Counted from the stretch's first letter, positions 6,239 to 62,040 are shown. The stretch: 64,000 nt of DNA from Magnetococcales bacterium (GCA_015229115.1 JADGCH010000006.1:16538-80537); one strand, 5' to 3'. Numbers and translations are program-made. Notes: generated by a model not told the origin, from the letters alone.

Positions 6239-6287
6239 AGGATACCGAATGCCCCGCTCAACTCAAGTCAGTTAGGATGGATAGACC

Positions 6288-7133
6288 GTGAAACGAATTG
6301 GTGCCCATGTTTCGGCTGCTGGAGGTGTGGCCCAGACACCGGCAACGGCTCATGCGATTGGTGCGACGGCCTTTGCCCTGTTCGTCAAGAACCAGCGCCA
6401 GTGGCAAGCCCCGCCACTTTCGAGCGATCAGATTGCCCAGTTTCGCGACGCCATGCAACAGTACAACTACCGTCCTCAAGATATCCTGCCACACGACAGT
6501 TACCTGATCAACCTGGGCCATCCAGAAGAGGATCTGCGTCGTAAATCGCTGCAGGCCCTGATCGATGAGATGGAGCGCTGTCGCTCCCTTGGTCTGTCCA
6601 TGATCAACACCCACCCGGGCAGTCACCTCAACAAGACGGACCCCAGTCACTGCCTGCAGCTGATTGCTGATTCGATCAATCAAGCCGTTGCAGCTGTCGA
6701 CGACGTTATCATCGTGCTGGAAAACTGCGCCGGTCAGGGAACCAATGTTGGTTACCGTTTTGAACAGTTGGCCGAGATTTTCAGCCAGGTCAAGGACCCT
6801 TCCCGTGTTGGATTTTGCCTGGACACCTGTCACGCATTCGCTGCCGGCTACGACCTCACGACCGAACAGGGATACGATCAAACCATGGCCGAGTTTGACC
6901 GCCTGATCGGACTGCAGCACATCCGCGGTGTTCATCTCAACGACTCCAAGGCCGCCTTTGGATCACGGGTTGATCGCCATCACAATCTGGGCCAAGGCCA
7001 CATTGGCCTGACACCATTCCGCTGCATGATGTCAGACAGCCGCTTCAACGAGCGCCCACTGATCCTGGAAACAGTCGACCATAACCTATGGCCAGAAGAA
7101 ATCAGACTGTTGCTGTCTTTTTGCCCGGACTGA
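6288..7133 (+). CDS. nfo: Endonuclease IV
   Basis: IGAHVSAAGG, PHDSYLINLG, HPGSH, ENCAGQG, CLDTCHAFAAGYD, HLNDSK, DRHHNLG. Confidence 0.95.
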   Translation: MKRIGAHVSAAGGVAQTPATAHAIGATAFALFVKNQRQWQAPPLSSDQIAQFRDAMQQYNYRPQDILPHDSYLINLGHPEEDLRRKSLQALIDEMERCRSLGLSMINTHPGSHLNKTDPSHCLQLIADSINQAVAAVDDVIIVLENCAGQGTNVGYRFEQLAEIFSQVKDPSRVGFCLDTCHAFAAGYDLTTEQGYDQTMAEFDRLIGLQHIRGVHLNDSKAAFGSRVDRHHNLGQGHIGLTPFRCMMSDSRFNERPLILETVDHNLWPEEIRLLLSFCPD

Positions 7134-7134
7134 C

Positions 7135-8781
7135 TCAAAACCTGAAATAACGCGTCAGGACATGATTGATGTCAATGATCGGCAGACCGCCGAGTTTTTT
7201 GACCTGCTTCTGCTGTTTCTTGGTCGGTGCGGCCATCGTCGGCTGTAGCGATGTTTTAGGCGGTGGTAATGGCGGTGAGCGCTTCTTACGTTTGGAAGAC
7301 TTAGCCAGACCGGTTGGCTCAATGGGCAGCACACCTACCTCAGAAGCAACCCCATGATCACAAGCCTCATTGATGGCTTCTGTCTCCGTGCTAGTCGAGT
7401 CATCCTCCTGATTCTCATCCCCCTGATTCTGGTTCCCGCTGTTCACCTCTTCCTGAGTCGTATCCGCAGCAGCATCTGCGACCGTCTCTGCCTCGGTCAC
7501 TGCCTCTGTGCCACCATCATCGGACACAGCCGACTCAACAGGCAAATCATCCTCCGAATCACCACTGTCGTCACTGATGACAGAAGGCAATTGCTCGGAC
7601 CGGAACGTCTCTGCCGCATTTTTCCAGGCTACATCACTTTGATCAGCCGCAACGGTGTCAACAGGCTGCTCCTCTACGTGACAACCGCTGCTGTACAATA
7701 AATCCTCGTCACCGAGCTCCGCATGCTCCGAAACTGACTCTGCTGTACCGATAATAACCGAGGCGTGGGATGGCTGCCGTTCCGCCCCATCATCCGCTCC
7801 TTCCTCCTCATCCTCGTCAACCAGCATCTTCGACAAGACTGCCACCATAGCCGCCGCATCCTCATCGACAGGCTCAGCATCAACCTCAGTCCCAAGATCA
7901 GCCTCCGGCTCAGTCTCAACCTCTGGTTCGGACTCCGGTTCAGGCTCGGCCTCATCTTCCGGCTCAACCTCGACCTCATCTTCCGGCTCAGTATCAACCT
8001 CTGGTTCGGGCTCCGGTTCAGACTCGGCCTCAGCTTCCGACTCAACCTCAGCTTCCGGCTCAGCCTCAATTTCCTGCTCGGGTTCCGCTTCCGGTTCTGC
8101 TTCCGGCTCAACCTCGGCCTCTGGCTCGGGTCCCGACTCAGACTCAGACTCAACTTCCGGCTCGGGTTCGGCCTCCGGCTCAGGTTCGACCTCAGCCTCT
8201 GGCTCATGTCCGGCCTCAGGTAATTCCTCCAGAGCAGATGCTTCAGACGCGGGCTTCATGGCAGGAGGCGGTTCAGGGGCTGTTGTCACTTCCGTGCTAT
8301 GGCTGACGACAGAAACTGCCGGAGCTGACGCGGTATCTTCTTCATCATTTTCCAACGAAAAACTGAAACAGGTGGTCAGATTTAGAATCAACAGCAACCC
8401 TTGGTCCAGCTTACCGATACCGTGCAGGAAGGCTGCATTGAGGCGCAACCCAATGGCAGGAGCCGGCTCGATGGTCGCTGGATCGATATCGATCACCTCC
8501 TGGACGGAATCGACCAAGGCTCCATACACGACCTTGTTTTTACGCTGACTGATTTCAAGGATGATGATACAGGTATCTTTGGTAAAACCAGCCGGAGGAC
8601 GACCAATGCGCATGCGCACGTCTATGACGGGGATAACGTCACCACGCAGGTGAATAACGCCACGAATGAACTCGTTCACACGGGCGATCTTCGTCATCTG
8701 GGTGACTTCCAGGACCTCTTTGACCTGGTCGATGGAAACCCCGAAAATTTCTCCGGCAATCTTGAAAGTAAGTAATTTCAT
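7135..8781 (-). CDS. cheW: CheW domain fused to a long acidic low-complexity tail
   Basis: First ~140 aa are CheW-like ([37 protein letters not shown]), followed by Glu/Pro/Ala/Asp-rich sequence. Confidence 0.85.
7890..8205 (-). repeat. Degenerate hexanucleotide tandem repeat encoding (EP/EA/EV)n
   Basis: GAGCCG/GAGGCT/GAGGTT/GAACCG units encode [13 protein letters not shown]...; boundaries approximate. Confidence 0.85.
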
Positions 8782-13596: not shown

Positions 13597-14082
13597 ATGA
13601 ACGTTCTGATCATCGACGACGATACCGTGGTCTGTAACCTGCTGGAGGAGATCCTTCGCTATGAAGGACACCGGACCGTTGTCACCCGTGACGGTCCTTC
13701 CGGTTTGCATGAGTTTCAGACCAGAGAGATTGAACTGGTACTGGTCGATGTCGCCATTGGTTTCACCATGGATGGTTGCGATGTAGCGCGACGCATCAAG
13801 CAGCTTACCATGAATCATCACCGTTTTGTACCCATTGTGCTGCTGACAGCCATGACAGACGACATCCAATTGGCCGACTGCATGGATCAAGGGGGTGATG
13901 ATCTGATTATGAAACCCTTCAACCGCAATCTGCTTGAGGCCAAACTGCGCGCATGGGAACGCGTCATCAATCGTTTTGAAATGCAGCGGATCGAGCTGCA
14001 ACAAAGCCATGACATGCAGCAGGATAGCACGGCAACGCTGTTGTCCTCAGAGGAGATGGCCGCTCTGCGCAGTCATGGCTGA
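13597..14082 (+). CDS. Single receiver-domain response regulator with short C-terminal extension
   Basis: LIIDDD, LVDV phosphoacceptor, LLTA, MKPF. Confidence 0.85.
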   Translation: MNVLIIDDDTVVCNLLEEILRYEGHRTVVTRDGPSGLHEFQTREIELVLVDVAIGFTMDGCDVARRIKQLTMNHHRFVPIVLLTAMTDDIQLADCMDQGGDDLIMKPFNRNLLEAKLRAWERVINRFEMQRIELQQSHDMQQDSTATLLSSEEMAALRSHG

Positions 14083-14826
14083 ATGAGTCTGGCAATCGGG
14101 TGTGACAGGTAGGACAGCTGGAGCGAGTAAGCGCCAACCAGACCAAAACAGGGCCGTGATGCCGACAACCATCAGGATAACGGCCGCCAAGCGCCGCGCG
14201 GATAACGAGGGGCGCAACGTCAACAGCTTACCACTCATCAGCCCGCCCCCCAGTGTAAAGGGCAAGGTACCAAGACCAAACAAGGCCATAGAAGCCGCTG
14301 ATGCAGCCGGGCTGGAGGTGCCGGTCGCGCTCCACAGCAGCGCCGCGTAGACCATGCCACAGGGTAGACACCCCCAGAGCAGGCCAAAAGCCAGCGCATG
14401 CCACGGTGCACGGGTGGGTAACATGCGCTGCGTCACAGGCTGCAACAGATGCCACAAGGGCATCATCTTCCGCTCCAGCCATACCAATATGTTCCACCAG
14501 CCACCCAGATGAAGACCCGCCACCAACAGCACCAAAGCGGCCGTGGCCTGCATGGCAAAACGAACCGGTGCCCCACCCAGCTGCATCAAACCTAAACCTG
14601 GCAGGGCAGCTATACCACCCAAAATAGCGTAGGTCGTGACACGTCCGGCGCCATACAACAACAGGTAAAGCAACATGCGCCCGCTCTGGTCACGAACAGA
14701 TGTTGGCAAAGCCGCTGTCAGTGCGCCCAGAATGGCTCCGCACATGCCCAGACAATGGGGCAAGGCGGTAATACCCATCAATAACGGGATCCACAACAGG
14801 GCCAGATCGGCAACCGTTACTTCCAT
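14047..14826 (-). CDS. TauE/SafE-like (DsbD_2) membrane protein linked to the cbb3 assembly genes
   Basis: HCLGMCG, GRVTTYAILG, WGCLPCGMVY, FGLGTLP motifs. Confidence 0.85.
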   Translation of the reverse strand: MEVTVADLALLWIPLLMGITALPHCLGMCGAILGALTAALPTSVRDQSGRMLLYLLLYGAGRVTTYAILGGIAALPGLGLMQLGGAPVRFAMQATAALVLLVAGLHLGGWWNILVWLERKMMPLWHLLQPVTQRMLPTRAPWHALAFGLLWGCLPCGMVYAALLWSATGTSSPAASAASMALFGLGTLPFTLGGGLMSGKLLTLRPSLSARRLAAVILMVVGITALFWSGWRLLAPAVLPVTPDCQTHSAMTAQSGHLL

Positions 14827-14835
14827 CCCGCTGGG

Positions 14836-14994
14836 TTACCGTCCCTCCTCTTCTTCCAACAACCGTCGTCCCTGTTGCTCAAACCGTTGGCGATGACCAG
14901 GCCAAAAGGCCCACACCACCACACCGACAAAAGTGATAAAGAAGATGACCAAGGCCACTTGCTTGGACAACAGCAACCATTGATCAAATGTCAT
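14836..14994 (-). CDS. ccoQ: cbb3-type cytochrome c oxidase subunit CcoQ (not in ORF track)
   Basis: Hand translation MTFDQWLLLSKQVALVIFFITFVGVVVWAFWPGHRQRFEQQGRRLLEEEEGR* (52 aa): one TM helix and FxGvvxWAFxPxxrxrFE pattern; ATGA overlap with ccoH. Confidence 0.85.
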   Translation of the reverse strand: MTFDQWLLLSKQVALVIFFITFVGVVVWAFWPGHRQRFEQQGRRLLEEEEGR

Positions 14995-15479
14995 GGCTCT
15001 CCCCTGAGTTGGATTCGTTCAACAAAACGCCAAGGAGGTGATTCCGGGCCGCCCTGCAACCGCACTTCCCAGCTGCCGGGCAACGGTACAACTACCTGGG
15101 CCACGTAACGGCCGGGTTCCTGTTCCTGCATGGCCCAAGCTTGGTCATGGCCATCCTGAACTGGACGGTATAAGGCTCCGTTCATCTGGAGACCGGTTAC
15201 CGGCCTGTTGTCACGATCACGCAGAGTCATCTCCAGCAATGCATGGCTACCGTGATCCGTGACCCGCAGCGATGGCCGCCATTGCAACTGTTCCTGGGCC
15301 TGCTGCGCCATCAGCACCTGATTGAACTGTAACCCCTGCTGGTAGTGGCCAACCGTCGTCAATCCGGTCCAACTGGTGCGGGAAAAATAGATCAGCGTTA
15401 CGTTGACTGTCAGGACTGTCACAAAAAAGCAGATAGCCGCTACCAGCCACCCGTTGACTCCACCAGACCGACTGTTCAT
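14991..15479 (-). CDS. ccoH: FixH/CcoH family protein
   Basis: N-terminal TM FFVTVLTVNVTLIYFS, YQQGLQFNQVL, LYRP, PGRY, GSWEV; follows ccoG. Confidence 0.85.
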   Translation of the reverse strand: MNSRSGGVNGWLVAAICFFVTVLTVNVTLIYFSRTSWTGLTTVGHYQQGLQFNQVLMAQQAQEQLQWRPSLRVTDHGSHALLEMTLRDRDNRPVTGLQMNGALYRPVQDGHDQAWAMQEQEPGRYVAQVVVPLPGSWEVRLQGGPESPPWRFVERIQLRGEP

Positions 15480-16891
15480 GACGGTCTCATGAAAACGCTA
15501 TGATAAACATCTGATCCACCCGATGGCTGTAAGGATTCCAGCACGAAACGGATCTCGACAGAACCAGCCATCAACGATTGTTCTGACTGCTTCAGATAGA
15601 CCGTGTAGGGCATGACCTCTCCAGGCCCAACCGTTAGCATGACCCCACCAGCCTGATCCGACGCATTCTCCGTCACAGCGACACTCAATCGGGCATCGGG
15701 CAGCCCCTCAACCCTTAACCGGTATTGATGCGGTTCCTGAGACATGTTCAGCACCCGCACGGTGAAGTTATTCTGGATGCCGCCATCTGTCAAGGCAATG
15801 TACAACGGCTGCCTCTGACGGATCACCGTCAGGTGCAGTGGTGGTCGAGTCAGAAAATGGGTTGCTATACCGCCAGCCAGCAACAGCAGAATGAGGCTAT
15901 AGGCCATGATGCGTGGCCGCAGAAAATGGGTCCGCCCACCACTGATCTCCCGCAACGAGGTATAGCGGATCAATTCGTTGTCCATGTGCAACTTTTCGCC
16001 AACATCGTTACAGGCATCAATGCAGGCACCACAAGTAATGCACTGGTATTGCTGACCATTACGAATATCAATCCCGGTTGGGCACACCGTTACACACTGT
16101 TTACAATCGATACAAAGGCCATATTTGCTGTCAGCAGACTGGCGCAGCTGACGATTGCCCTGGCGCGGTTCACCCATCTCGGGATGATAGGCGACAATGA
16201 TGGTATCCTCATCAAACATGACCCCCTGAAAACGGGAATAGGGGCACATGTAAATACAGACCTGCTCCCGCGCAAAACCAGCCATGGTATAGGTGGTTGC
16301 CGTCAGAATGGCTAGCGTGATCCAGGCTGGTAGCGGTGCAGTGCCTCGCAAAAACTGGGACATCAGCGTTGGTGCATCGGCAAAGTAGAAGACAAAAAAC
16401 CCCCCTGTTGCCATACTGATCAGAATCCACGTGAGGTGCTTGGCCAACTTGATGGCTAGTTTGCCTATCCCCCATGGCGACTGGTCCAGCTTGATGCGCT
16501 GCTTGCGATTACCCTCGAACAGCTTTTCGACGTAAAGAAAAAGATCTGTCCAGACAGTCTGGAAACAGATGTAACCACAAAAAACACGTCCAGCCAGAGT
16601 GGTGATAAAAAACAGCAATACGGCAGCGGCAATGAGCAATAAGGCCAACAGAAAGATCTCCTGTGGCCAGATAATCAGGTCAAAAATGTAGAACTTGCGG
16701 TTGGGCAGATCGAACAGCACCGCTTGATCGGGCAAGCTGCCAGGTCTGTTCCAACGCAACAGGGGCAACACAATCCAGATCCCCAGCAACAGAAAAATCA
16801 ATCCCCAACGCATACGGCGAAAGAAACCGGTCTGGTAACGTGGATATAGTTTTTTCCAGTCAGAATATAAAGATACCGTTCCTTCACTCAT
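15476..16891 (-). CDS. ccoG: Cytochrome c oxidase accessory protein CcoG (4Fe-4S)
   Basis: GRVFCGYICFQT, REQVCIYMCPYSRFQ, CIDCKQCVTVCPTGIDIR, CITCGACIDAC. Confidence 0.95.
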   Translation of the reverse strand: MSEGTVSLYSDWKKLYPRYQTGFFRRMRWGLIFLLLGIWIVLPLLRWNRPGSLPDQAVLFDLPNRKFYIFDLIIWPQEIFLLALLLIAAAVLLFFITTLAGRVFCGYICFQTVWTDLFLYVEKLFEGNRKQRIKLDQSPWGIGKLAIKLAKHLTWILISMATGGFFVFYFADAPTLMSQFLRGTAPLPAWITLAILTATTYTMAGFAREQVCIYMCPYSRFQGVMFDEDTIIVAYHPEMGEPRQGNRQLRQSADSKYGLCIDCKQCVTVCPTGIDIRNGQQYQCITCGACIDACNDVGEKLHMDNELIRYTSLREISGGRTHFLRPRIMAYSLILLLLAGGIATHFLTRPPLHLTVIRQRQPLYIALTDGGIQNNFTVRVLNMSQEPHQYRLRVEGLPDARLSVAVTENASDQAGGVMLTVGPGEVMPYTVYLKQSEQSLMAGSVEIRFVLESLQPSGGSDVYHSVFMRPS

Positions 16892-17125
16892 TCGATTATG
16901 AGCCCCCTATAATGGCAGAAGTTTATTGATCCATAATAAGCATAAATAGGATCATTCATAACAATGCTATCATAAATGTAACATATTGTATCAGAACAAC
17001 TCAAATAAGTTATAAACCCAATGATACGCTAGAGCTGGAGAGCATTCAACGACTGAAAAAGTTCCCCGTTTTTTTCTGTGAATCAGAAAAATATTTTACT
17101 TTCTTTACCGCTGTTTTGTTTTACA

Positions 17126-17142
17126 ATGACAATCTGTGTCAT
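17126..17142. promoter_or_regulatory. Perfect inverted repeat ATGACA-N5-TGTCAT upstream of ccoN; candidate regulator site
   Basis: Seen in sequence about 35 bp before the ccoN start, in an AT-rich divergent intergenic region. Confidence 0.4.
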
Positions 17143-17176
17143 GTTGCATTAACGCTATCGAAGAAAGGAGATCACT

Positions 17177-18577
17177 GTGGCAGTCGTGGCAACAGAATCC
17201 TATGACTATGCGGTTGTCCGCAAATTTTCGGTGATGGCGATCGTTTACGGTGTGGTCGGATTCCTGGTGGGCGTCATCATTGCCCTGGAGCTCGCATTTC
17301 CGGAACTGAACGCTGGTATCCCCTATATCTCATTCGGGAGGCTGCGCCCGCTTCATACCTCAGCAGTCATCTTTGCCTTTGGTGGCTCGGTTCTGTTTGC
17401 TACCAGTTATTACATCGTACAACGCACTTGCCGTGCCCGCCTCTTCTCCGACTTTCTCTCCAGTTTTACCTTCTGGGGCTGGAATCTGGTGGTGGTGGCC
17501 GTGGTCATTACTTACCCTCTGGGTCTGTCGCAGGGCAAAGAGTATGCGGAGACTATCTGGCCCATCGATCTGCTGATTACGGTGGTGTGGGTGGCCTATT
17601 TCATCAATTTTGTCGGCACCCTGGCACGCCGCAAGGAACCCCACATCTATGTGGCCAACTGGTTTTATCTGGCCTTCATCATCACAGTGGCCTTGCTGCA
17701 CATTGTCAATAATCTGGCCATTCCGGTCAACATGACCGACTCCTACAGCATCTATTCCGGTGTGCAGGATGCCATGATTCAATGGTGGTATGGTCACAAT
17801 GCTGTTGGATTTTTCCTGACAGCAGCCTTTCTCGGTCTGATGTACTACTTTATCCCCAAACAGGCTGAGCGCCCTGTCTACTCCTATCGTCTTTCCATTG
17901 TTCATTTCTGGGCGCTGGTATTCCTCTACATCTGGGCTGGTCCACACCATTTGCATTACACAGCCCTACCAGACTGGGCCTCAACGCTGGGTGCCACCTT
18001 TTCGATCATGTTGCTGCTGCCCTCGTGGGGTGGTATGATCAATGGCATCATGACCCTTTCCGGAGCTTGGCACAAGCTGCGTACCGACCCGATTCTGCGT
18101 TTTCTGATTGTCTCACTCTCCTTCTATGGTATGTCAACCTTCGAAGGACCGATGATGTCGATCAAAACGGTCAACGCCCTGTCACACTATACCGACTGGA
18201 CCGTTGGTCACGTTCATTCCGGCGCTCTGGGTTGGGTCGCCATGGTTTCATTTGGTGCCCTGTACCACATGATGCCCAAACTCTGGAATACGCGCATTCA
18301 CTCGGTAGCCCTAATTAACTTTCATTTCTGGCTGGCGACCATCGGCGTGGTGCTCTACATCGTCGCGATGTGGATTTCAGGCATCATGCAAGGACTGATG
18401 TGGCGCGCCTATGACCAGTTCGGCAATCTAACCTACTCCTTTGCTGAGACCGTGGCAGCGATGCATCCCTATTATCTCATCCGGGCGTTAGGGGGCATTG
18501 TTTTTCTGGTTGGTGCGTTGGTTATGGTCTATAACATCGTTATGACCATCAAGAACAGCGACCGTGTTCCGGCTTGA
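17177..18577 (+). CDS. ccoN: cbb3-type cytochrome c oxidase subunit I
   Basis: [46 protein letters not shown]. Confidence 0.97.
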
Positions 18578-18598
18578 TCTGGCAAGGAGGCAACAACA

Positions 18599-19315
18599 AT
18601 GAATCACGCAATCGTTGAGAAAAGCATTCCCATCATGAGCCTGTTGACCCTGATCATGGTGTCAATCGGTGGTCTGGTGGAGATTGTGCCGCTGTTCTTT
18701 ATCGACAGCACCATTGAGACGGTACAGGGCATGCGCCCCTACACACCGCTGGAACTCAAGGGACGGGATATCTACATCCGCGAAGGCTGCTACAACTGCC
18801 ACTCACAGATGGTCCGCCCGTTCCGTGATGAGAAAGAGCGTTACGGGCATTACTCACTGGCTGCCGAAAGCATGTACGATCATCCGTTCCAGTGGGGGTC
18901 GAAGCGGACCGGACCAGATCTGGCTCGGGTCGGTGGTAAATATTCCAGTCTGTGGCATCAGGAGCACATGCGCAATCCTCGCGCCGTTGTACCGGAATCG
19001 GTCATGCCTTCCTACCCATGGTTGGAGAAAACTGCCCTGAATTATGGTGATGTCGGTGCGCGTATGGCGGCCCTGAAAAAAGTGGGTGTTCCCTATACCG
19101 ACGAGATGATCCAACAAGCCAAGGCTGATCTGGAAGCGCAGGCAGTTCCAGGTCGCAGCACAACAGCCCTGACGGGCCGTTATGGCAAAAAGGTTCCTGT
19201 CGATGACTTTGACGCCAAACCGGATCAGATCACTGAACTGGATGCGATGACTGCTTATTTACAAATGCTGGGTACGCTGGTGGACTTTTCGTCGTACCAA
19301 GCCCGTAGTCGCTGA
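18599..19315 (+). CDS. ccoO: cbb3-type cytochrome c oxidase subunit II
   Basis: [27 protein letters not shown]. Confidence 0.97.
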
Positions 19316-19345
19316 TCGTAACCGGAACAGGAGGAGGGATTTGCC

Positions 19346-20281
19346 ATGGCTACTCGTCAACAAAACCAGAACCAACCACAGCAGGGAACCCCGACCACTG
19401 GTCATCAGTGGGACAATGACGAAGGCTATCCACTGCAGGAATACAACAACCCCCTACCAACCTGGTGGCTTTACACCTTCTATGCCACCATCGTTTACGC
19501 CGTGATCTACTGGGTTCTTTATCCAGCTTGGCCCACGATTAACGGATTTACCAAGGGCGTGCTCGGAAGTTCCATGTACCAGGAACTGGCCGCGGAAGAA
19601 GCTGCCGCCAAAGCTGCCCGTCAAGGTCTGGAACAGCAACTGGCCACACTCTCCCTGGAAGAAGCGGCCCGTGACAACCGGATGTTGCAGTTTGCCTTGT
19701 CAAGCGGCAAGGCCGTTTTTGGCGACAATTGTGCCCCTTGTCATGGTACCGGTGGTGTCGGCTCCCAAGCCAAGGGCTTCCCGGTGCTTGTTGACGATGA
19801 CTGGCTGTATGGTGGCACACTGGCGGCCATACAGGAGAGCATCGCCAAGGGTCGTTCGGGCCAGATGCCGGCTCACCTGCAAGCAGCCGGTGGTTCTCTC
19901 AGTGATGATCAAATCAATGATTTAACACAATTTACCCTGAGTCTGTCACAGCGGGCTACCGATCAGGTTGCTGCCCAGCGCGGCCAAAAGCTCTTTGGCG
20001 GCGAAGCGGGTTGCAACAACTGCCATGGCGACCAGGGTAAAGGATCCCTGCGAGACACCGTTGCTGGCCAGCCCATCGATCACGCCGTTGGAGCCCCCAA
20101 CCTGACCGACAAAATCTGGTTGCATGGTGGTGATGTCGAAACCATCAAAGCTTCAATCGCCAAGGGACGTAATGGCCAGATGCCTGCCTGGGGCGGTAGC
20201 GCAGGGCGACTGTCACCCCTTGACATCAAGGCTGTTACGATCTACGTCCACGCCCTCGGAGGGGGACAGAAGTCGCGTTGA
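19346..20281 (+). CDS. ccoP: cbb3-type cytochrome c oxidase subunit III
   Basis: TTGHQWD, EYNNPLP, two CxxCH (CAPCH, CNNCH). Confidence 0.95.
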   Translation: MATRQQNQNQPQQGTPTTGHQWDNDEGYPLQEYNNPLPTWWLYTFYATIVYAVIYWVLYPAWPTINGFTKGVLGSSMYQELAAEEAAAKAARQGLEQQLATLSLEEAARDNRMLQFALSSGKAVFGDNCAPCHGTGGVGSQAKGFPVLVDDDWLYGGTLAAIQESIAKGRSGQMPAHLQAAGGSLSDDQINDLTQFTLSLSQRATDQVAAQRGQKLFGGEAGCNNCHGDQGKGSLRDTVAGQPIDHAVGAPNLTDKIWLHGGDVETIKASIAKGRNGQMPAWGGSAGRLSPLDIKAVTIYVHALGGGQKSR

Positions 20282-55349: not shown

Positions 55350-56176
55350 ACCTTTATCGATTGACCACATCGTGGTGGGGATCCATGCTGGTCTTGCTGC
55401 TGGCCTGTTATGCCATAGCCTCTCTCTATCTGTTTTTGACACAGGAGCAGAAGGTGTTCCATCCCAGTTCCGTGTTGCAACAGACGCCCCAGCAATGGGG
55501 TCTCGAATTCGAATCCATTCTCTTGAGCAGTGACGGCGTACCCATTCACGGCTGGTGGATTGCCGGTGCATCGCATCGACCGGTTGTGCTGTTTTGTCAT
55601 GGCAACAGTGGCAACATGTCTGATCCAGCCGTTGCCGATCGCACCAAGCTGTTGCATGAACTAGGGCTGGGTGTTCTGCTATTTGATTATCGGGGTTACG
55701 GGACCAGCCAAGGAAGTCCTAGCGAAACGGGCAGCTACCGTGATGGTGAAGCGGCGCTGCACTTTCTCGTCCATGAGAAAAAGATTCCGGTGCAGAACAT
55801 CCTCGTCTATGGACATTCGCTCGGTGGTGGCATAGCCAGCTGGCTGGCAGTTCAACAACCTACGCGTGGGTTGATCCTTGAAGGCAGTTTTACCTCCATC
55901 GAAGACATGGCCGAAGAACGTTATCCTTATCTTCCCGTGCGCTGGCTGGCACGCATCCACTACAATAACCTGGAGCGCATGCCATGGTTGCGCGCCCCGC
56001 TTCTTCTGATCCACAGTCGCGAGGATGAGGTGGTCGCGTGGACACATGGACAGCGTCTGTTCGCAGCTGCCAGAGAACCTAAAACATGGCTGGAGATGCG
56101 TGGTAGCCATAATCATGGCTTGATTGATTCAGCCGTCGCTGTTAAACAGGCTATAGCATCCATGGCTGGTTTTTGA
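55346..56176 (+). CDS. Alpha/beta hydrolase with N-terminal TM
   Basis: HGNSGN, DYRGYG, GHSLGG nucleophile elbow, HSREDE, GSHN. Confidence 0.9.
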   Translation: MNLYRLTTSWWGSMLVLLLACYAIASLYLFLTQEQKVFHPSSVLQQTPQQWGLEFESILLSSDGVPIHGWWIAGASHRPVVLFCHGNSGNMSDPAVADRTKLLHELGLGVLLFDYRGYGTSQGSPSETGSYRDGEAALHFLVHEKKIPVQNILVYGHSLGGGIASWLAVQQPTRGLILEGSFTSIEDMAEERYPYLPVRWLARIHYNNLERMPWLRAPLLLIHSREDEVVAWTHGQRLFAAAREPKTWLEMRGSHNHGLIDSAVAVKQAIASMAGF

Positions 56177-56190
56177 GCGAGTGTGACCGT

Positions 56191-56928
56191 ATGGCTATCC
56201 AATCAATCGCAATCCTTGCTGCCCTACTTAAACGGGGAATGATCTTCATACGTCAACATCTGTCGGTACGACGTCCGAATCCACAGATTATGACCGATCC
56301 TATGGCGTTACAGATCGGTGATCACATCCATTTTGGTCAACTGTTACAGCCGCCCTTACAAAATGGCCATTTTCAGGTCGTAGCCATCGATACCGTCGTG
56401 CTGGATAATGTCCGCCAATCGGTCTTGATGCTCGTTGGAGAAGATGGATCCAGCTGCTATCTGACCATGAGTGACTCAGACCATGCCGAGACGATACTCT
56501 TGCGTATCGGTCGTCATGTGAGCGATAAAACCATTGGCCAGTTGTTTAATATCGATGAGCTGACGGCCCTGTTTGAAGAGGAACCCAACGAAACCACATC
56601 TCTGGCCCTGAAAAGACGGCGCGATTTACCCCTATTCTCAGGGTGGACGGCGTCCTCCTACTATCCAGCGCTTCATGCCATCAATGGCATCAGACACCGT
56701 GGCGATTTCCGCAACAGCGCGTTCATGCCTCTGCCGATTGAAGGAGAGGGTTTCGACTACTACCTGATGCTCAGCCAGAATCAGCGTCATGGCGTTGCCA
56801 TTGAGGTCAACGACGAAGGCCGGATCGCCTTGTCGCTGATGATTCAGCTAGCACCAGAGGCCATCGAACGCATCGAGCGGTTTTCCGCAACCAGGAAATC
56901 CCCCATACGATCGTTTGCCCCCTACTGA
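56191..56928 (+). CDS. Hypothetical protein
   Basis: Long ORF in operon orientation; no family confidently recognised. Confidence 0.6.
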   Translation: MAIQSIAILAALLKRGMIFIRQHLSVRRPNPQIMTDPMALQIGDHIHFGQLLQPPLQNGHFQVVAIDTVVLDNVRQSVLMLVGEDGSSCYLTMSDSDHAETILLRIGRHVSDKTIGQLFNIDELTALFEEEPNETTSLALKRRRDLPLFSGWTASSYYPALHAINGIRHRGDFRNSAFMPLPIEGEGFDYYLMLSQNQRHGVAIEVNDEGRIALSLMIQLAPEAIERIERFSATRKSPIRSFAPY

Positions 56929-57662
56929 TCATTTTGAGCCGTCAAGCGGAATTGCACCGGTATCTCGATCGTTTCTTCTGTGGGTTGACCGTTGCGTATA
57001 GCCGGTATAAAACGCCAATCGGCTACGGCATCCCGTGCCACGCGGTCCAGTAAGGCGTGGCCGGAGCTGTGTCGCAGTGTCACCACAACCGGCCTACCGT
57101 CTATACTGACGGTCACCGCAACCACTACCGTCCCCTCCATGCCCATACGTCGGGCCACGGCAGGATAGTCCGGCTTTGGGTTGAACTGGTAGGCAATAGG
57201 ACGGTCAGGTGTGGTTACTGATAACTCCACAGCTGCTGTTGTCGTAACGGCAGATCCATCAGCGATCTGATGAGACATCGCAACAGTTCTATCAGATCCA
57301 CCAGACACGATAACTTCATTTGCGTCAGTCGATTTCTGAGCAATGCTTTTGTGTTTGCGACTCATCGGTATGGCTACTGGCTTGACTCTGTCCGTCGGCA
57401 ATGCCGACGGCGGCTGGATTGCCTCCTCTCTGGGTAAGACAGGATCAGGTTGCTGAGGAGACAAAGGCAACTGTTGCTCCAACGGTGGTCGAGGAATAGC
57501 AGATACCAACCGAACCATAACAGGTTGAGACAACTGGCTATTCAGTGGATTGCCTAGTGGTGGGACGTACCATCTAACCAGCGAAACCACCAACACACCA
57601 TGCAGCAGCCCTGACATCAGCAACGACCCCAGCATACTGGATGGCCCATCCACCGATGACAC
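56922..57662 (-). CDS. tonB: Energy transducer TonB
   Basis: TM with SGLLH, Pro-rich linker, PDYPAVARRMGMEGTV, SSGHALLD, WRFIPA. Confidence 0.9.
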   Translation of the reverse strand: MSSVDGPSSMLGSLLMSGLLHGVLVVSLVRWYVPPLGNPLNSQLSQPVMVRLVSAIPRPPLEQQLPLSPQQPDPVLPREEAIQPPSALPTDRVKPVAIPMSRKHKSIAQKSTDANEVIVSGGSDRTVAMSHQIADGSAVTTTAAVELSVTTPDRPIAYQFNPKPDYPAVARRMGMEGTVVVAVTVSIDGRPVVVTLRHSSGHALLDRVARDAVADWRFIPAIRNGQPTEETIEIPVQFRLTAQNDQ

Positions 57663-57780
57663 GTTACGATCGCCCCCAACAGTGAAAATTCGCCGCCTCC
57701 CTGGTTCAAACGACCCGTCTAAGAACTGCCCGTCGCGACGATGTTAAACGATCTTTCCGGCTCGGCCAATGGCTCACGGC

Positions 57781-60102
57781 CTAAAACTCCACAGTCATGC
57801 CAGCATAGATCGAACGACCCGCACCGGGAACGGGGATACCCCAAGGGATCCCGTTAAGGCTCATGGTGGTCCCCTGTCCGGTATAAGCCCCACCGAGCGG
57901 TAGCGCGTAGAATTTATCGAAAAGATTATCGATACCAAAGTCCAATCTGACCTGCTTCCAGGAATATCCGGAACGTAAATTGACCAAACCATAACCAGGC
58001 GTCTGCATCTCCTGTCGAACGTCGGAAACATTGTTTTTTGCTTTCACCATCACGAATTCAAGGCCGCTGTCCCAAGCGTCAAGCTGATGGGTGAACATGA
58101 CTTTGGCGTTAAGAGGCATGATGTTATAGAGATCATCGCCTGTGTCATGGTTCTTGCCATTGGTATAACTGAGCAAGCCTTTCAGCTTCCAATTTCCCCA
58201 ATCGTTATTCCCTAGCGGCATGCTCCCGGAAACATCCAAGCCATAAATCCTGGCTGATTGGTTAGCATACTGGAGATGGAAAAACTTATTTGAGCCCATA
58301 TTGTTCGCCGCACCCCCACAAAGCGCATTCATCATCATGCCGCTTCCTTTGCAACGGATAGCATCTATGTAGTCCGTGGCATAGGTATAGTAAGGGGTGA
58401 TTTTGAACTCAGAAGTACGGGCAGCATCGCGCCAGTTAGCCGTCACGCTCAGCGTATGAGACACCTCTGGCTCCAAGTCCGGATTGCCAAGATAGCCGTT
58501 ACCATCACCGACAAAGTTGTTCATGATCAACGCCATGCCATGCATAGACCAGGAGTAACGCTCATAGAGGTTTGGTGAACGGGTCTTTTGAGAGTAGCCA
58601 AATTCAAAATGACGGCTGGCATCCTGGGTATAACGTGCCATCGCAGTCACGTCTACATTTCCATCACGACGCTGATGGTCACGAGCATTGAAGGCAGCTG
58701 CTGACGCAACGTATCCAGTGTTGATATCGTTATAGCCCTGTACCGGACCCGTATCCATTGTCACCTGTTCAACACGCACGCCAAGCGAGGTGAGCCACTG
58801 GGGATTCCAGTGTGCTTCCCACTCGGCAAAAGCCCCCAGACGATCACGCTGGCCGTTGTTGAGGTTCCAAAACGTATTGGGGGCCATTCCTCCAAAGGTG
58901 GCCGGCTTGCCCATTCCATCCACCATGCCAGACAATGATGATGGCGATGGCGGCCACCAATCATTGAGACGGTATCGCTGATATTCTCCGCCCACCCGGA
59001 AAATATCACGCTCTGAGAGCAGAATATCTGCCTTAATCAATACACCAGTATTATTCCCTTCGGTATCCATCGGCATTCCAGGAGCAACGATAGTGGACGG
59101 AAGATTTGGCCCATAGACAAACTGCTTGTCACGATCAAAATCCATCTTATGTCGTGTGTGGCTGTGATAAGCACGCATATCCAGCCCTCCCCACTGGTAT
59201 TTGCCCTTATAGTTCAGATTGATGTGTTCGCTAGCATCATCGGTCATGTCCATGCGTTGGTTGGGGTACCCCTGATAAGGGATATGTTGCACACCTAGTT
59301 TGAGATCGACCAGGTGATTTTCGTGGCGCAAGGCCAATCTCAGCGACTGGTCCAGGGTTTGGTAATGGGAAGAGCCTACTTCATTACCATCTAGCCAACC
59401 TTTATCCACTGCCGCCAGCCCAGACGGCTTGAACTCCCTGGCCGCCTTGTAATTGTCCGACTGAGCGGAGGAACCGCTGTACGTCATGCTTAACGCTTCA
59501 CCAGCCAGTGTTGCCGATAAATGGCTCCCGTATCCATTCCCGTTGCTACGATAGAAAGCGCCTCCTTTCCCTTTGAACAGGGTGCCCTGTCCGGCTGTGG
59601 CAAACTCAGGTTCCCGGGAATCTACAAGGATTGCCCCTCCGATGCTATCGCCACCAACACTCACTGGCACAACACCATTGAGCACCTGAATTTTCCCGAT
59701 GTTCGTCGGTGCGATATAAGATAGTGGTGGATTCATGTGGTTAGGACAGGCAGAAATCAAATTCATACCATCCACCTGAACCCGTAGCCGATCATCAGCC
59801 ATTCCATGAATGGATGGCAGACTGGAGATACCACCGTTGGTCTGAAGACTGACACCAGGGGTATTGCCCAACAGAGCAGCACTGTCATGGGCCCACAGCT
59901 GCCGGATGGTCAACTGCTTGCCTGATAACACCTCCCCACCGCCAGGCTCATCACCGTGGGGAGCTGTCACGATAACTCGCTCCAACTGCTCTAAATTCTC
60001 TCCATCCGCTGCCCATGTGGTACCAGATAGAAGTAAAATTGCTCCAGTCAGTGGCATACGGGTCATCAAACCAACTTTCTTGTCATGCGTTTTTCTTGTC
60101 AT
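57781..60102 (-). CDS. TonB-dependent receptor, OprC-like putative copper receptor
   Basis: Signal peptide, TonB box VIVTA, plug motif SACPNHMNPP (CxxxM), Met-rich loops, NLFDKFY, C-terminal Phe. Confidence 0.85.
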   Translation of the reverse strand: MTRKTHDKKVGLMTRMPLTGAILLLSGTTWAADGENLEQLERVIVTAPHGDEPGGGEVLSGKQLTIRQLWAHDSAALLGNTPGVSLQTNGGISSLPSIHGMADDRLRVQVDGMNLISACPNHMNPPLSYIAPTNIGKIQVLNGVVPVSVGGDSIGGAILVDSREPEFATAGQGTLFKGKGGAFYRSNGNGYGSHLSATLAGEALSMTYSGSSAQSDNYKAAREFKPSGLAAVDKGWLDGNEVGSSHYQTLDQSLRLALRHENHLVDLKLGVQHIPYQGYPNQRMDMTDDASEHINLNYKGKYQWGGLDMRAYHSHTRHKMDFDRDKQFVYGPNLPSTIVAPGMPMDTEGNNTGVLIKADILLSERDIFRVGGEYQRYRLNDWWPPSPSSLSGMVDGMGKPATFGGMAPNTFWNLNNGQRDRLGAFAEWEAHWNPQWLTSLGVRVEQVTMDTGPVQGYNDINTGYVASAAAFNARDHQRRDGNVDVTAMARYTQDASRHFEFGYSQKTRSPNLYERYSWSMHGMALIMNNFVGDGNGYLGNPDLEPEVSHTLSVTANWRDAARTSEFKITPYYTYATDYIDAIRCKGSGMMMNALCGGAANNMGSNKFFHLQYANQSARIYGLDVSGSMPLGNNDWGNWKLKGLLSYTNGKNHDTGDDLYNIMPLNAKVMFTHQLDAWDSGLEFVMVKAKNNVSDVRQEMQTPGYGLVNLRSGYSWKQVRLDFGIDNLFDKFYALPLGGAYTGQGTTMSLNGIPWGIPVPGAGRSIYAGMTVEF

Positions 60103-60154
60103 GGTCAATCAGCCTCAGTACAAGTCGGAAAGGGAAGACATCCGATTTCCTTCC

Positions 60155-60169
60155 GCAAATCCGGTTCCA
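60155..60169 (-). promoter_or_regulatory. Sigma54 (-24/-12) promoter for the TonB receptor
   Basis: Minus strand TGGAACCGGATTTGC has GG-N10-GC spacing (consensus TGGCAC-N5-TTGC), about 50 bp upstream of the ATG. Confidence 0.75.
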
Positions 60170-60220
60170 TAATTAATATAATTATATTACAATAGGTTGA
60201 ATACTATTGTTTTTACCTTC

Positions 60221-60268
60221 TGAGTGATATAACACACCCTGTAACGCACAAAATGAGTGTTATCACCC
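60221..60268. promoter_or_regulatory. Paired enhancer-like sites (candidate bEBP UAS)
   Basis: TGAGTGATATAACAC and TGAGTGTTATCACCC; each core is one mismatch from palindrome GTGATATCAC; 33 bp apart. Confidence 0.6.
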
Positions 60269-60338
60269 ATTGATTTTATTGCTGAAATAGGATAGAATCT
60301 GGTTCACCATAAAAATTAATACTGAGTTCTCCGGCAAA

Positions 60339-61079
60339 ATGGCTGAGATTTCCCTGGTCGTGCCGCTGGTTGTCGCGGCTGGCAGCGCCTTGCACTGTCT
60401 GAGTATGTGCGGTGGTATTGCTGGCGCTCTGACCGTAAGTCTGCCAGCCCAGATACAACAGAACAGAACCAACGCCCTCGTCTACCTGCTGGTCGCCAAT
60501 GGGGGGCGGGTTATCAGTTATGCGATGGCTGGCTGGCTGGTAGCCCTTTTCGGTCAGTCCTTGTTCATGTCACTATCCCCGCGGTATGGACACACGATCC
60601 TGGAATCAGTTTCCGGTGTTGTCCTGGTCCTGGCTGGCTTGCATCTAGGTGGTCACGGAACATGGTTGCGTCGCATTGAACATCTAGGGGCACCATTGTG
60701 GCGTCTGCTGGAGCCCTACGCCTACCGACTCATGACGTCACACGGGGTAGGCTATATGCTGACCTTTGGTTTGATCTGGGGTTGGCTGCCCTGTTCTCTG
60801 GTTTACGCTGCTCTGGTCTGGAGCAGCAGTGTTGGCACACCGGCTGACAGCGCTCTCAATATGGCTATGTTTGGTGTTGGAACCTGCATGGTGACCCTGC
60901 CAGCCGGATGGGTGATTCATCGACTGACCCAGTGGGCTATGCGGTACCATGTCAGGGAGTTGGTCTCCATGTTGCTGATACTGGCTGGTATGTATACCCT
61001 GTTTTTTGCCCTGTTACCGATAGGACGTCCATTGTCACCTGAACCCTTCCAGGAAATTGGGTATTGTCATGACCAGTAA
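60339..61079 (+). CDS. TauE/SafE-like (DsbD_2) membrane protein
   Basis: HCLSMCGG, GRVISY, WGWLPCSLVY, FGVGT; paralog of 14047..14826. Confidence 0.85.
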   Translation: MAEISLVVPLVVAAGSALHCLSMCGGIAGALTVSLPAQIQQNRTNALVYLLVANGGRVISYAMAGWLVALFGQSLFMSLSPRYGHTILESVSGVVLVLAGLHLGGHGTWLRRIEHLGAPLWRLLEPYAYRLMTSHGVGYMLTFGLIWGWLPCSLVYAALVWSSSVGTPADSALNMAMFGVGTCMVTLPAGWVIHRLTQWAMRYHVRELVSMLLILAGMYTLFFALLPIGRPLSPEPFQEIGYCHDQ

Positions 61080-62040
61080 TACAGATTGCCACCCCAAGAT
61101 GCAGGGGCAGTCGCCGCCCTTTCTGGCAATGCTACGTTCTGCGCGACTGGTGGCTGCTACTCGCGCACCAGTCCTGATACAGGGCGAATCCGGTACCGGC
61201 AAGGAATTGCTGGCACAGTTCATCCATGAGCAAAGTCCACGACATCGAAAGTCGTTTATCGCCATCAACTGCGCAGCGCTTCCGGAAGCCCTGGCTGAAA
61301 GCGAACTGTTTGGTCATGCCAAAGGAGCTTTTACCGGAGCCAACACGGCCCGTGAGGGACGTATCGCAGCAGCACAGTACGGAACGCTGTTTCTGGACGA
61401 AATTGGTGAAATGCCTCTGACGGTTCAGTCCAAGTTATTGAGATTTCTAGAGAGCGGTGAATGCCAGGTGTTGGGTGAGGGCCGGTCCATCCACATTGAT
61501 ACCCGTATCATTGCGGCTACCAATCGGGGCTTGGCTGATCTGGTTCAACAGGGGCGGTTCCGCAACGATCTTTACTATCGGTTACAGGTCGTCCCCCTTG
61601 AAGTTCCTCCCCTTAGACAGCGCAGCGATGATATCGAACCCCTGGCGCAGCAGTTTCTGCAATGGTTCTCCCGTCATCATGGCGTTGCTGCCCCGCAGCT
61701 GACCGATCCGGTACGCAGAATGATGCACCGTTGGTCGTGGCCTGGCAACATCCGTGAACTACGCAATCTCTGCGAACGTCTGGTGATCTTACACAGCGGC
61801 AGCGACTTGGCGATCGAACATCTACCTCATGAAATCAGGGCATGTCACCCCACAACGGAACGATTTCCAGCCGCAGATTTTCCAATAACAGGCATTAGCC
61901 TGGAACATCTGGAACGTGAGTTGATCATGAAAGCCCTAGCTCATGCTGGAGGCAACCGCAGTCGCGCAGCACGGTTACTCGATCTCAGTCGCGATACATT
62001 GCTTTATCGCATCAAAAAACACGGTTTGCAGACAGACTAG
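61069..62040 (+). CDS. Sigma54-dependent enhancer-binding protein lacking an N-terminal regulatory domain
   Basis: [36 protein letters not shown], Fis-type HTH; only ~10 aa precede the AAA+ region. Confidence 0.9.

Follow-up and report, generated by a model that had tools for sequence, protein, structure and literature searches.

We describe two divergent operons in a 64,000-nucleotide (nt) stretch of DNA from a Magnetococcales bacterium (GCA_015229115.1 JADGCH010000006.1:16538-80537). The whole stretch is referred to here as the window, and positions in it are counted from its first letter. One operon encodes a TonB-dependent receptor of the OprC family and its own tonB. The other encodes a membrane protein of the DsbD_2 family and a sigma-54 activator, two genes that we refer to as the pair. 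The locus is probably a metal-acquisition module, with copper the most likely metal. Comparison of sequences across genomes establishes that the DsbD_2 and activator genes form a conserved unit, that the two are fused into a single gene in one lineage, and that receptor genes adjoining the pair share a palindrome-promoter architecture. It also establishes that the class of the receptor promoter co-varies with the GAFTGA loop of the activator, and that the receptor carries a complete set of copper ligands. The features of the locus are as follows.

56922-57662 (-), tonB, the last gene of the receptor operon (TonB_C E 2e-22; TIGR01352 E 1.5e-19)
57781-60108 (-), OprC-family TonB-dependent receptor, 775 amino acids (aa) from a TTG start, with Plug and TonB_dep_Rec_b-barrel domains
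60154-60169 (-), sigma-54 type -24/-12 promoter TGGAACCGGATTTGCG facing the receptor, identified by consensus scoring
60171-60220 (no strand), A+T-rich spacer with the inverted repeat CAATAG-N8-CTATTG, read from the sequence
60221-60236 (no strand), candidate upstream activating site 1, palindrome TGAGTGATATAACACA, one mismatch to TGTGT-N6-ACACA
60254-60269 (no strand), possible second palindrome TGAGTGTTATCACCCA, weak, two mismatches, 33 nt from site 1, read from the sequence
60270-60298 (+), sigma-70-like promoter TTGATT-17-TAGAAT, 40 nt before the DsbD_2 start, a consensus match only
60339-61079 (+), DsbD_2-family six-helix membrane protein (PF13386 E 7e-39)
61057-62040 (+), sigma-54 activator, 327 aa, with AAA+, lid and Fis-type helix-turn-helix (HTH) parts identified as Pfam domains

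The open reading frames (ORFs) and their translations bear out every gene and motif that a first-pass annotation of this DNA, made from the sequence alone, had placed in the locus. The two operons diverge from an intergenic region of 230 nt between the receptor and DsbD_2 genes. On one side, the receptor gene is followed after 118 nt by tonB on its own strand, an order also seen in two other loci (L013 and L031). On the other side, the DsbD_2 and activator ORFs share 23 nt.

We compared 100 loci, namely the best DsbD_2 match in each of 20 genomes of the same order and the best 80 of 584 confirmed loci from a scan of one genome per species. The first-pass annotation had proposed a neighbourhood search for a DsbD_2 gene and a short activator conserved together, and such a search finds the pair in 69 of the 100 fetched loci, 67 of them distinct. 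The activator directly follows DsbD_2 on the same strand in 17 of the 20 same-order loci, with 51-70% identity to that of the window, and the pair is present in 52 of the best 80 of the 584 confirmed loci. The hosts are Nitrospirota, Nitrospinota, Magnetococcales-type genomes and many Gammaproteobacteria, the last including Sedimenticola, Thiohalophilus, Thiotrichaceae, Methylococcaceae and Methylophaga. By the start-codon calls made here, 22 of the 67 distinct pairs have overlapping ORFs, with 1-23 nt in common. Loci that have no activator mostly show the classical context of cbb3 oxidase maturation. The annotation had expected the receptor to be conserved along with the pair, and this holds in part: the arrangement recurs in 17 of the 67 pair loci, in different phyla. 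Several long ORFs near other pairs were suspected to be receptors, and domain checks showed otherwise. The genes flanking the pair in Methylococcaceae were likewise considered as functional neighbours and set aside as synteny, not function.

Some pair loci have additional features. Two tandem DsbD_2 genes (7151-7783 and 8001-8636) precede one activator in an uncultured gammaproteobacterium (L057), and genes for DUF2244 membrane proteins follow the pair in L045, L057 and L067. In one genus of the same order, the pair adjoins genes for haem o synthase and COX1/COX2/COX3 (L017:11274-17702, L018:13162-18332, L020:3571-6419). This oxidase is an aa3-type haem-copper enzyme accompanied by a Crp/Fnr regulator gene, assignments that are Pfam-verified for L017 only.

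The pair is also found as a single gene. In a Methylohalobius metagenome-assembled genome (MAG; locus L096), DsbD_2 and activator form one ORF of 558 aa. We used the membrane part of this ORF as a query against proteins of 306-977 aa. Fifteen of the 28 matches (555-604 aa, 70-82% identical) carry PF13386, PF00158, PF25601 and PF02954 together. These fused proteins represent 15 protein clusters from Methylothermaceae-type methanotrophs, and include proteins of Methylohalobius crimeensis and of Methylomarinovum caldicuralii (on a 2.69-Mb contig). A word-limited search with the window protein as query found none of these longer fused forms, which the L096 query did find. The two fused proteins whose sequences were fetched keep HCxGMCG, WGWLPC and GAFTGA, and only about 25 residues link the last helix to the AAA+ domain. 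The fusion places the C-terminus of DsbD_2 in the cytoplasm. In the fused form, the membrane domain takes the exact place that the regulatory domain holds in ordinary activators. Fusion is a classical signature of two proteins working as one, and the idea that the membrane protein is the partner of the activator, put forward in the first-pass annotation, predicts both a conserved pair and a natural fusion. Both were found. A different joined ORF was observed in L140 (2-1372, minus strand; genome G050), in which DsbD_2 is truncated at about residue 190 and the AAA+ domain is missing profile positions 1-48. A palindrome and a sigma-54 promoter precede this ORF, which may reflect an in-frame deletion or faulty assembly of the MAG, or may be a pseudogene.

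The activator of the window has a Sigma54_activat domain at residues 16-181 (PF00158 E 2.8e-67), followed by AAA_lid_14 and HTH_8, and contains the GAFTGA loop. No N-terminal sensor domain was detected by Pfam, as the AAA+ domain starts at residue 16, and the N-termini of 61 activator relatives are short and variable. The description of a GAFTGA-containing activator with no sensory domain, encoded by a gene that overlaps the DsbD_2 gene, is thus accurate. Group-4 enhancer-binding proteins, e.g., PspF and HrpR/HrpS, are described as having no regulatory domain (PMC7175178). The window protein scores 274.6 bits with the PspF equivalog model TIGR02974, below its cut-off of 443.55. As a protein of AAA+ and HTH domains only, it would be controlled in trans, and the kept adjacency and the fusions make DsbD_2 the candidate partner. 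The activators that accompany DsbD_2 in other phyla are 50-60% identical to it, and the two nearest paralogues from the window's genome reach 44 and 42%. Residues of the HTH are invariant across the 61 sequences. The Cys-His pairs DCHP and ACHP, which had been proposed as sensing residues, are present in the window protein and are not conserved. Among 65 aligned activators, C11 is Cys in one, H12 is His in four, C263 is Cys in three and H264 is His in five. Two other cysteines, C72 and C239, are near-invariant in the same alignment. 

The DsbD_2 protein scores 134.2 bits with PF13386 (gathering threshold 24.9). Across 60 relatives, H19, C20, M23, C24, G25, W147, G148, P151 and C152 are invariant. 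These residues form the motif HCxxMCG in the first transmembrane helix (TM1; H19, C20, M23, C24) and WGWxPC in the fourth (TM4; P151, C152), and the two motifs are conserved candidates for the sensing residues in place of the Cys-His pairs. The YCHD of the membrane protein tail, also proposed earlier as a sensing element, does not withstand comparison, since a CH dipeptide occurs in only 2 of 60 tails. At least two His are present in the C-terminal tail of 44 of the 60 relatives. An AlphaFold2 model is all-helical (predicted local distance difference test score 85.8), and a Foldseek search of this model against the PDB gave no match at E<=0.001. The window protein has no match to DsbD_TM (PF02683) at E<=0.01, and a distant DsbD_2 paralogue (L148) matches DsbD_TM at E 6e-7. 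In a quick tree, built from sequences cut at 260 aa, 23 oxidase-linked DsbD_2 proteins form their own supported clade. A single clade of pair-linked DsbD_2 was considered and not adopted, as the tree has nine label changes (shuffled mean 28) and a weak backbone. 

The promoter that faces the receptor is TGGAACCGGATTTGCG, located 45 nt before the TTG start of the receptor ORF. The ATG at 60102, two codons in and with GAGG upstream, is the likelier start. The element matches 9 of the 11 scored positions of the -24/-12 consensus and is the sole intergenic match among the seven that score at least 9 between 50000 and 64000. In a genome of the same genus, its counterpart TGGAACTTAATTTGCG has kept both position and hexamers, and an alignment of the two upstream regions has the palindrome and the -24/-12 element as its best-conserved blocks. 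Together with the presence of rpoN in the window's genome, these results confirm the -24/-12 promoter reported in the first-pass annotation, and conservation supports a sigma-54 promoter that is real enough to be maintained.

Upstream of this promoter, the centre of palindrome site 1 lies about 85 nt from the inferred transcription start, and that of the weaker site about 120 nt. An upstream activating sequence for the HTH_8 domain would be expected at such a distance. Genome-wide, only site 1 combines at most one mismatch, a core with A/T at five of six positions and an outward -24/-12 element (score at least 9) reading into the adjacent gene. The palindrome as such is not enriched in the window's own genome, which has 33 sites with at most one mismatch compared with about 90 expected by base-independent odds. 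Paired palindromes also occur in L013, L133 and L134. In the spacer, CAATAG-N8-CTATTG resembles, with one mismatch, what we take to be the consensus of integration host factor (IHF), and may be an IHF or bending site. TGTGT-N6-ACACA also contains TGT-N10-ACA, presumably the same shape as the site of NifA. The sigma-70-like promoter of the DsbD_2 operon abuts the second palindrome; sigma-70-like matches are not in excess in the intergenic region (6 compared with a shuffled mean of 5.1).

The same palindrome, TGTGT-N6-ACACA with an A+T-rich core, is found upstream of receptors that adjoin pairs in other genomes. The fetched loci, 1.31 Mb in total, contain 11 perfect copies (9 distinct), and each is directly upstream of a receptor gene or, once, of a tonB gene (L014). 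In one same-order locus (L018:1760-7009), two tandem receptor genes, 52-53% identical to that of the window, have nearly identical upstream regions, in both of which a perfect palindrome accompanies the same -24/-12 element; the gene order is tandem receptors, a tonB-like gene, exbB, exbD and then the pair. A stricter pattern, TGTGTNWWWWNACACA, occurs at 26 sites in 15 pair-bearing genomes compared with 2 sites for a reversed control. In five genomes that have only oxidase-linked DsbD_2, there is one such site, with no pair or sigma-54 promoter nearby. This site is a perfect palindrome, TGTGTGAAATCACACA, in a Halothiobacillus MAG whose sole detected DsbD_2 has no activator (L145; G055:C3:73943-73958). 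It has no pair or sigma-54 promoter within 1.5 kb and may be due to chance. Palindromes elsewhere are located 60-230 nt from sigma-54 promoters. An outward sigma-54-like promoter lies 30-260 nt from 15 of 19 palindromes, compared with 1920 of 8013 background positions (24%), where the 19 sites are not independent, 10 being from one island (G043).

A further link between activator and receptor promoter comes from activators that have lost the GAFTGA loop. An alignment of 61 activators shows the loop, as GAFTGA or a near variant, in 49 and its loss in 12. Where the activator next to a receptor has GAFTGA or GAFTDA, a -24/-12 element scoring at least 8 is present in 10 of 11 loci, L053 being the miss. 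Where the receptor start is complete (nine loci), the element precedes it by 36-60 nt and is comparable to that of the window; in L031, the element falls inside the first, too-long call of the receptor ORF. In the six loci that combine a receptor with a GAFTGA-less homologue (L054, L056, L076, L097, L098, L110), which represent at least three lineages, no GG-N10-GC is found in the 300 nt upstream. Four of these six keep the palindrome (at most one mismatch), 75-107 nt from the start codon. Loss of GAFTGA with a kept palindrome suggests that control has become sigma-70-dependent, exerted by an AAA+ protein no longer able to contact sigma-54. Judged from these loci, the class of the receptor promoter follows the ability of the activator to contact sigma-54. 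Such co-variation is expected only if the activator regulates the receptor promoter, and it therefore ties the two together. The connection drawn in the first-pass annotation between activator and receptor promoter gains both a conserved enhancer-like palindrome and this co-variation, and it is quite likely that the activator is the protein that binds the palindrome. GAFTGA-less homologues that have kept a DsbD_2 partner are also present in other loci (L037, L043, L046, L055, L086, L092).

The receptor has the plug and barrel fold (PF07715 E 5e-13; PF00593 E 2.7e-31), and its translation contains ACPNHM (C121, M125), GMMMNALC and MHGMALIM. Its only PDB sequence matches at E<=0.001 are OprC variants (best 1e-24), with ACPNHM aligned on the ACPNRM of OprC. 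We built a profile from the window receptor and 18 receptors that adjoin DsbD_2 genes elsewhere. With this profile, OprC is matched from end to end at E 3.6e-166, followed by PhuR at 1.9e-50, and the HxM of the family (vdHlMdn) falls on aDHIMDN of OprC, i.e., H323 and M325. The copper site of OprC is reported to consist of C143, M147, H323 and M325 (PMC8610252). These correspond to C121, M125, H320 and M322 of the window receptor; because ACPNHM and HxM both align with OprC ligands, all four copper ligands are present. M125, H320 and M322 are invariant in all 19 receptors, and C121 is present in 12 of them. MHGMALIM is a conserved Met-rich segment in the closest relatives, and a variable loop with a Cys on either side contains GMMMNALC. 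The first-pass annotation's comparison of the receptor, with its plug motif and Met-rich loops, to OprC agrees with the full-length profile match. CrtA was also considered as a comparison and set aside as a member of a different receptor family, described in its report as being without conserved Cys or Met (PMC12914433).

Genes behind the palindrome in other genomes point to copper. In Methylobacter tundripaludum SV96, where the pair sits amid housekeeping genes, the genome has a single palindrome, followed at a distance of 200 nt by a sigma-54 promoter with two TonB-receptor genes. A Methylococcales MAG (G043) has ten perfect palindromes in 37 kb, most of them adjoining sigma-54 promoters, and the genes downstream encode two MauG-like dihaem peroxidases, sulfotransferase-TPR proteins, a Fur-family protein with a receptor, and ORFs of no recognised kind. 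This island (L133-L134; G043:C14:76693-113190) has TGTGTCATATGACACA as eight of its ten palindromes, which sometimes serve two divergent promoters. Several of its ORFs, of 317-331 aa, match no Pfam family and could be unrecognised CorA/MopE-like proteins. In Methylococcus-type MAGs, the palindrome and a sigma-54 promoter precede a gene for a CorA-like Cu(I)-binding protein (PF18252, E 3.9e-30), as well as second DsbD_2-activator pairs and a gene for a 411-aa DsbD_2. In a genome with the fused regulator, the same elements precede a MauG-like gene and a gene for a 378-aa DsbD_2. The second pairs that follow palindrome and promoter are those of L144 and L140, and longer DsbD_2 genes do so in L143 and L148; autoregulation is suggested because of these genes. 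In the window's own genome, no CorA-like or MauG-like gene was found behind a palindrome.

CorA is described as a copper-repressible Cu(I)-binding surface protein (PMC3912023). Two MauG-family genes, MCA2590 and MCA1906, are reported to be 12- to 15-fold up in cells that produce soluble methane monooxygenase, i.e., copper-limited cells, and a TonB receptor as well as putative sigma-54 promoters are reported for the copper-responsive clusters of M. capsulatus (PMC4831470). In Methylotuvimicrobium, limiting copper induces CorA and CorB (PMC11784148). The regulator of these copper-limitation stimulons is not named in the relevant sections of PMC4831470 and PMC11784148. The regulon points to copper because targets of the CorA and MauG families have this published induction, and copper limitation would then be the probable signal at the window locus as well. 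Beside the pair itself, HMA-type P1B ATPase genes are present in L036 (Pfam-verified) and L044 (same BLAST cluster). The haem-copper oxidase genes that adjoin the pair in one genus, and the DsbD_2 paralogue that ends the ccoG-ccoH operon of the window, are further links to copper. An Atlas cluster in which DsbD_2 is fused with HMA (84% of members) and Cupredoxin_1 (60%) offers a lead only. In five Methylococcus-type MAG genomes, matches to the sigma-54 promoter motif published for MCA0424 were at control level, and gave no link to that promoter.

We propose that the locus works as follows. The activator would bind the palindrome centred about 85 nt (and that about 120 nt) upstream of the inferred start, and the A+T-rich spacer with its IHF-like sequence would let it loop to the sigma-54 closed complex. 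ATP hydrolysis by the activator would then open the promoter of the receptor-tonB operon. DsbD_2, encoded by a translationally coupled gene, would serve as a detached sensor domain, with the signal supplied by an intramembrane cluster of His, Cys and Met (HCxxMCG, WGWxPC). Copper-loaded or copper-transporting DsbD_2 would hold the AAA+ domain inactive; when copper is scarce, the activator would be released and the receptor made, which is the simplest logic for an uptake system. The sigma-70-like promoter that abuts the second site would allow autoregulation of the DsbD_2 operon. The copper taken up may serve the cbb3 oxidase, as suggested in the first-pass annotation. Here we infer that gating takes place, in which direction it acts and which metal is involved. 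On the present evidence, we lean slightly towards a DsbD_2 protein that gates the activator rather than one that only transports.

Several observations weigh against this proposal or parts of it. The remaining 50 of the 67 pair loci have no OprC-family receptor within the fetched flanks, so that the expected co-conservation of the receptor does not extend to them, and in Methylococcaceae the pair is flanked by housekeeping genes (pyrF, pdxJ, recO, era, rnc, lepB, lepA). Conversely, L099 has a receptor and a DsbD_2 gene with no activator. Very close homologues of the window receptor in L114, L115 and L117 (Methylobacter tundripaludum, Sedimenticola) have neither the palindrome nor a convincing -24/-12 element. 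In the window, the palindromes are imperfect (one and two mismatches), the score of TGGAACCGGATTTGCG was reached in 8 of 500 shuffles of the 300-nt upstream region, and the DsbD_2 tail has one His. Gly replaces the Cys ligand in 7 of the 19 receptors adjoining pairs. The window receptor scores 126.2 bits with the copper-receptor model TIGR01778 (cut-off 472.45), and haem-receptor NCBIfam models score slightly higher, also below cut-off. Because of the TIGR01778 score, we place the receptor in a separate subfamily that is not orthologous to OprC. The receptors behind the palindromes of M. tundripaludum and G043 have no CxxxM motif and are not OprC-like. The G043 island includes a Fur-family gene, so another metal is possible, and AraC-type and OmpR-type regulators that could bind the palindrome. 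Finally, DsbD_2 paralogues are themselves members of the regulon, which, like the arrangement in L099, fits a plain transporter role. In the L099 locus, the OprC-family receptor, with ACSNNM, is at 5107-7170 and DsbD_2 at 8001-8651; the association of receptor and DsbD_2 also exists without the regulator.

If DsbD_2 were only the inner-membrane part of the uptake route, a metal transporter transcribed together with the regulator, the activator would be controlled by an unlinked anti-activator, by its own abundance or by direct metal binding. Activator-less DsbD_2 paralogues in cbb3 maturation operons and beside the receptor of L099 would fit such a transporter, as would the longer DsbD_2 genes behind palindromes (L143, L148) and the Atlas cluster that joins DsbD_2 to HMA and cupredoxin domains. 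However, a fusion of a pure transporter to an activator in 15 clusters is hard to explain without functional coupling, and gene order and frequent stop-start overlap are kept across phyla. Nor was a Cys or His specific to the activator family identified: the Cys-His pairs are unconserved, and C72 and C239 stand without comparison to other activators. A transport-only role is for these reasons rather unlikely in our estimate, although transport as such does not exclude gating, since a signalling transporter would satisfy both. The signal might also be other than copper: a different thiophilic metal, iron or haem, or the envelope's thiol-redox state. The Fur-family gene and non-OprC receptors behind palindromes would fit such a signal, as would MauG-like targets, which are haem proteins, the best (below cut-off) NCBIfam scores of the receptor on haem-receptor models, and the DsbD_TM match of the L148 paralogue (E 6e-7). 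The host order has a heavy iron demand. We also take the TM1 and TM4 cysteines to be like those of CcdA and DsbD, which would favour thiol-redox sensing. Such signals are nonetheless improbable given that all four OprC copper ligands are present, that a gene for a CorA-like Cu(I)-binding protein is a direct target, that HMA-domain P1B ATPases stand beside the pair (L036, Pfam-verified; L044, by BLAST cluster), and that the window DsbD_2 has no DsbD_TM match at E<=0.01. The published induction of CorA and MauG-family genes by copper limitation argues in the same direction (PMC4831470; PMC11784148).

It is highly improbable that there is no regulatory link at all, i.e., that the operons are chance neighbours and the -24/-12 match and palindromes fortuitous. 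The moderately unusual promoter score (8/500 shuffles) and the 33 palindromes of the genome against about 90 expected would agree with chance. They are opposed by the recurrence of the receptor-pair arrangement in 17 of 67 pair loci in different phyla, by promoter and palindrome kept as footprints in the same-genus alignment, by the co-variation of promoter type with GAFTGA, and by palindromes next to sigma-54 promoters far above background. This explanation is already close to refuted.

The proposal that DsbD_2 gates a palindrome-binding activator in response to copper may extend beyond the window. We suggest, tentatively, that DsbD_2-activator proteins could be a widespread master regulator of copper starvation, in which DsbD_2, separate or fused, reads copper at its intramembrane His/Cys/Met site and directly controls the activator, and TGTGT-N6-ACACA serves as the enhancer. 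If so, the regulator so far lacking for the response of gammaproteobacterial methanotrophs to copper limitation (CorA/MopE, CorB/MauG-like proteins, TonB receptors) would be the pair, which would likewise govern OprC-type copper receptors in bacteria of the Magnetococcales type and others. In Gram-negative bacteria, the sensing of copper shortage, as distinct from copper excess, is still largely an open question. The candidate is now concrete: a two-gene or fused regulator, a DNA site, a promoter class and a regulon that can be predicted from genome sequence alone. With a transporter-like domain integral to the membrane, it would represent a new type of input for sigma-54 activators, and it would offer a first functional entry point to the DsbD_2 family, its cbb3-maturation paralogues included. 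The parts are of known kinds, an OprC-family receptor, a group-4-like enhancer-binding protein (PMC7175178) and a DsbD_2 protein. The first-pass annotation knew of no account of such a circuit, and the literature searched yielded no description of it. The same search found no report of DsbD_2 as a detached or fused input domain of a sigma-54 activator, of the palindromic site of this activator, of a sigma-54 regulon joining OprC-type receptors with CorA- and MauG-type copper-limitation genes, or of a promoter-class switch in GAFTGA-less lineages.

Two other regions of the window deserve mention. A cbb3 oxidase locus lies about 40 kb away (whole span 14047-20281), in which ccoNOP (17177-20281, plus strand) is divergent from ccoG (15476-16891, minus strand), followed on the minus strand by ccoH/FixH (14991-15479) and a second DsbD_2 gene (14047-14826). 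This oxidase-linked DsbD_2 is 38-39% identical to the activator-paired one, and an operon that ends in DsbD_2 after ccoG-ccoH recurs in many Gammaproteobacteria. We found no functional study of oxidase-linked or activator-linked DsbD_2 in the literature searched. Adjacent to the receptor operon, an ORF of 251 aa (56173-56928, plus strand) is convergent with tonB, whose 3' end it shares over 7 nt. No Pfam or NCBIfam model matches this ORF, and it was not seen adjoining the pair in other loci.

Among known systems, the receptor is most similar to OprC/NosA (Pseudomonas aeruginosa OprC, PDB 6FOK), with which it shares the plug and 22-strand barrel, the CxxxM-HxM site and Met-rich loops. M286 of the methionine track described for OprC also aligns with the window receptor (PMC8610252). 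The identity of the two is about 25% or less, and the window receptor is about 50 residues longer. Unlike OprC, it has its own tonB and a sigma-54 promoter with an upstream palindrome. The down-regulation of oprC under copper stress is stated, in the OprC report, to be by a mechanism that is not known (PMC8610252). CorA/MopE and CorB/MCA2590 resemble the present system in that genes of their families stand behind the same palindrome and sigma-54 promoter in methanotrophs that have the pair; they are targets, and not components of the window locus.

The oxidase-linked DsbD_2 proteins of cbb3 maturation operons belong to the same Pfam family and have the same invariant HCxxMCG and WGWxPC motifs. 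Unlike the DsbD_2 of the pair, they have no activator downstream. The Cys in TM1 and the Cys in TM4 are, we presume, reminiscent of CcdA and DsbD. DsbD/CcdA relatives shuttle electrons through two membrane cysteines, and by analogy DsbD_2 may have a thiol-disulfide role like that of CcdA. Among sigma-54 activators, MmoR, which acts on the genes of soluble methane monooxygenase, is connected with the copper switch of methanotrophs. It requires MmoG, possesses a regulatory domain at its N-terminus, and to our knowledge is not paired with a DsbD_2 gene. PspF (with PspA) and HrpR/HrpS (with HrpV) are closer in design, as they have AAA+ and HTH domains only and are controlled in trans by a partner. 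In contrast to these, the putative partner in the present case is a six-helix integral membrane protein of the DsbD_2 family, which is encoded directly before the activator and in one lineage is fused to its N-terminus, and the output would be metal acquisition rather than the envelope stress response or type III secretion.

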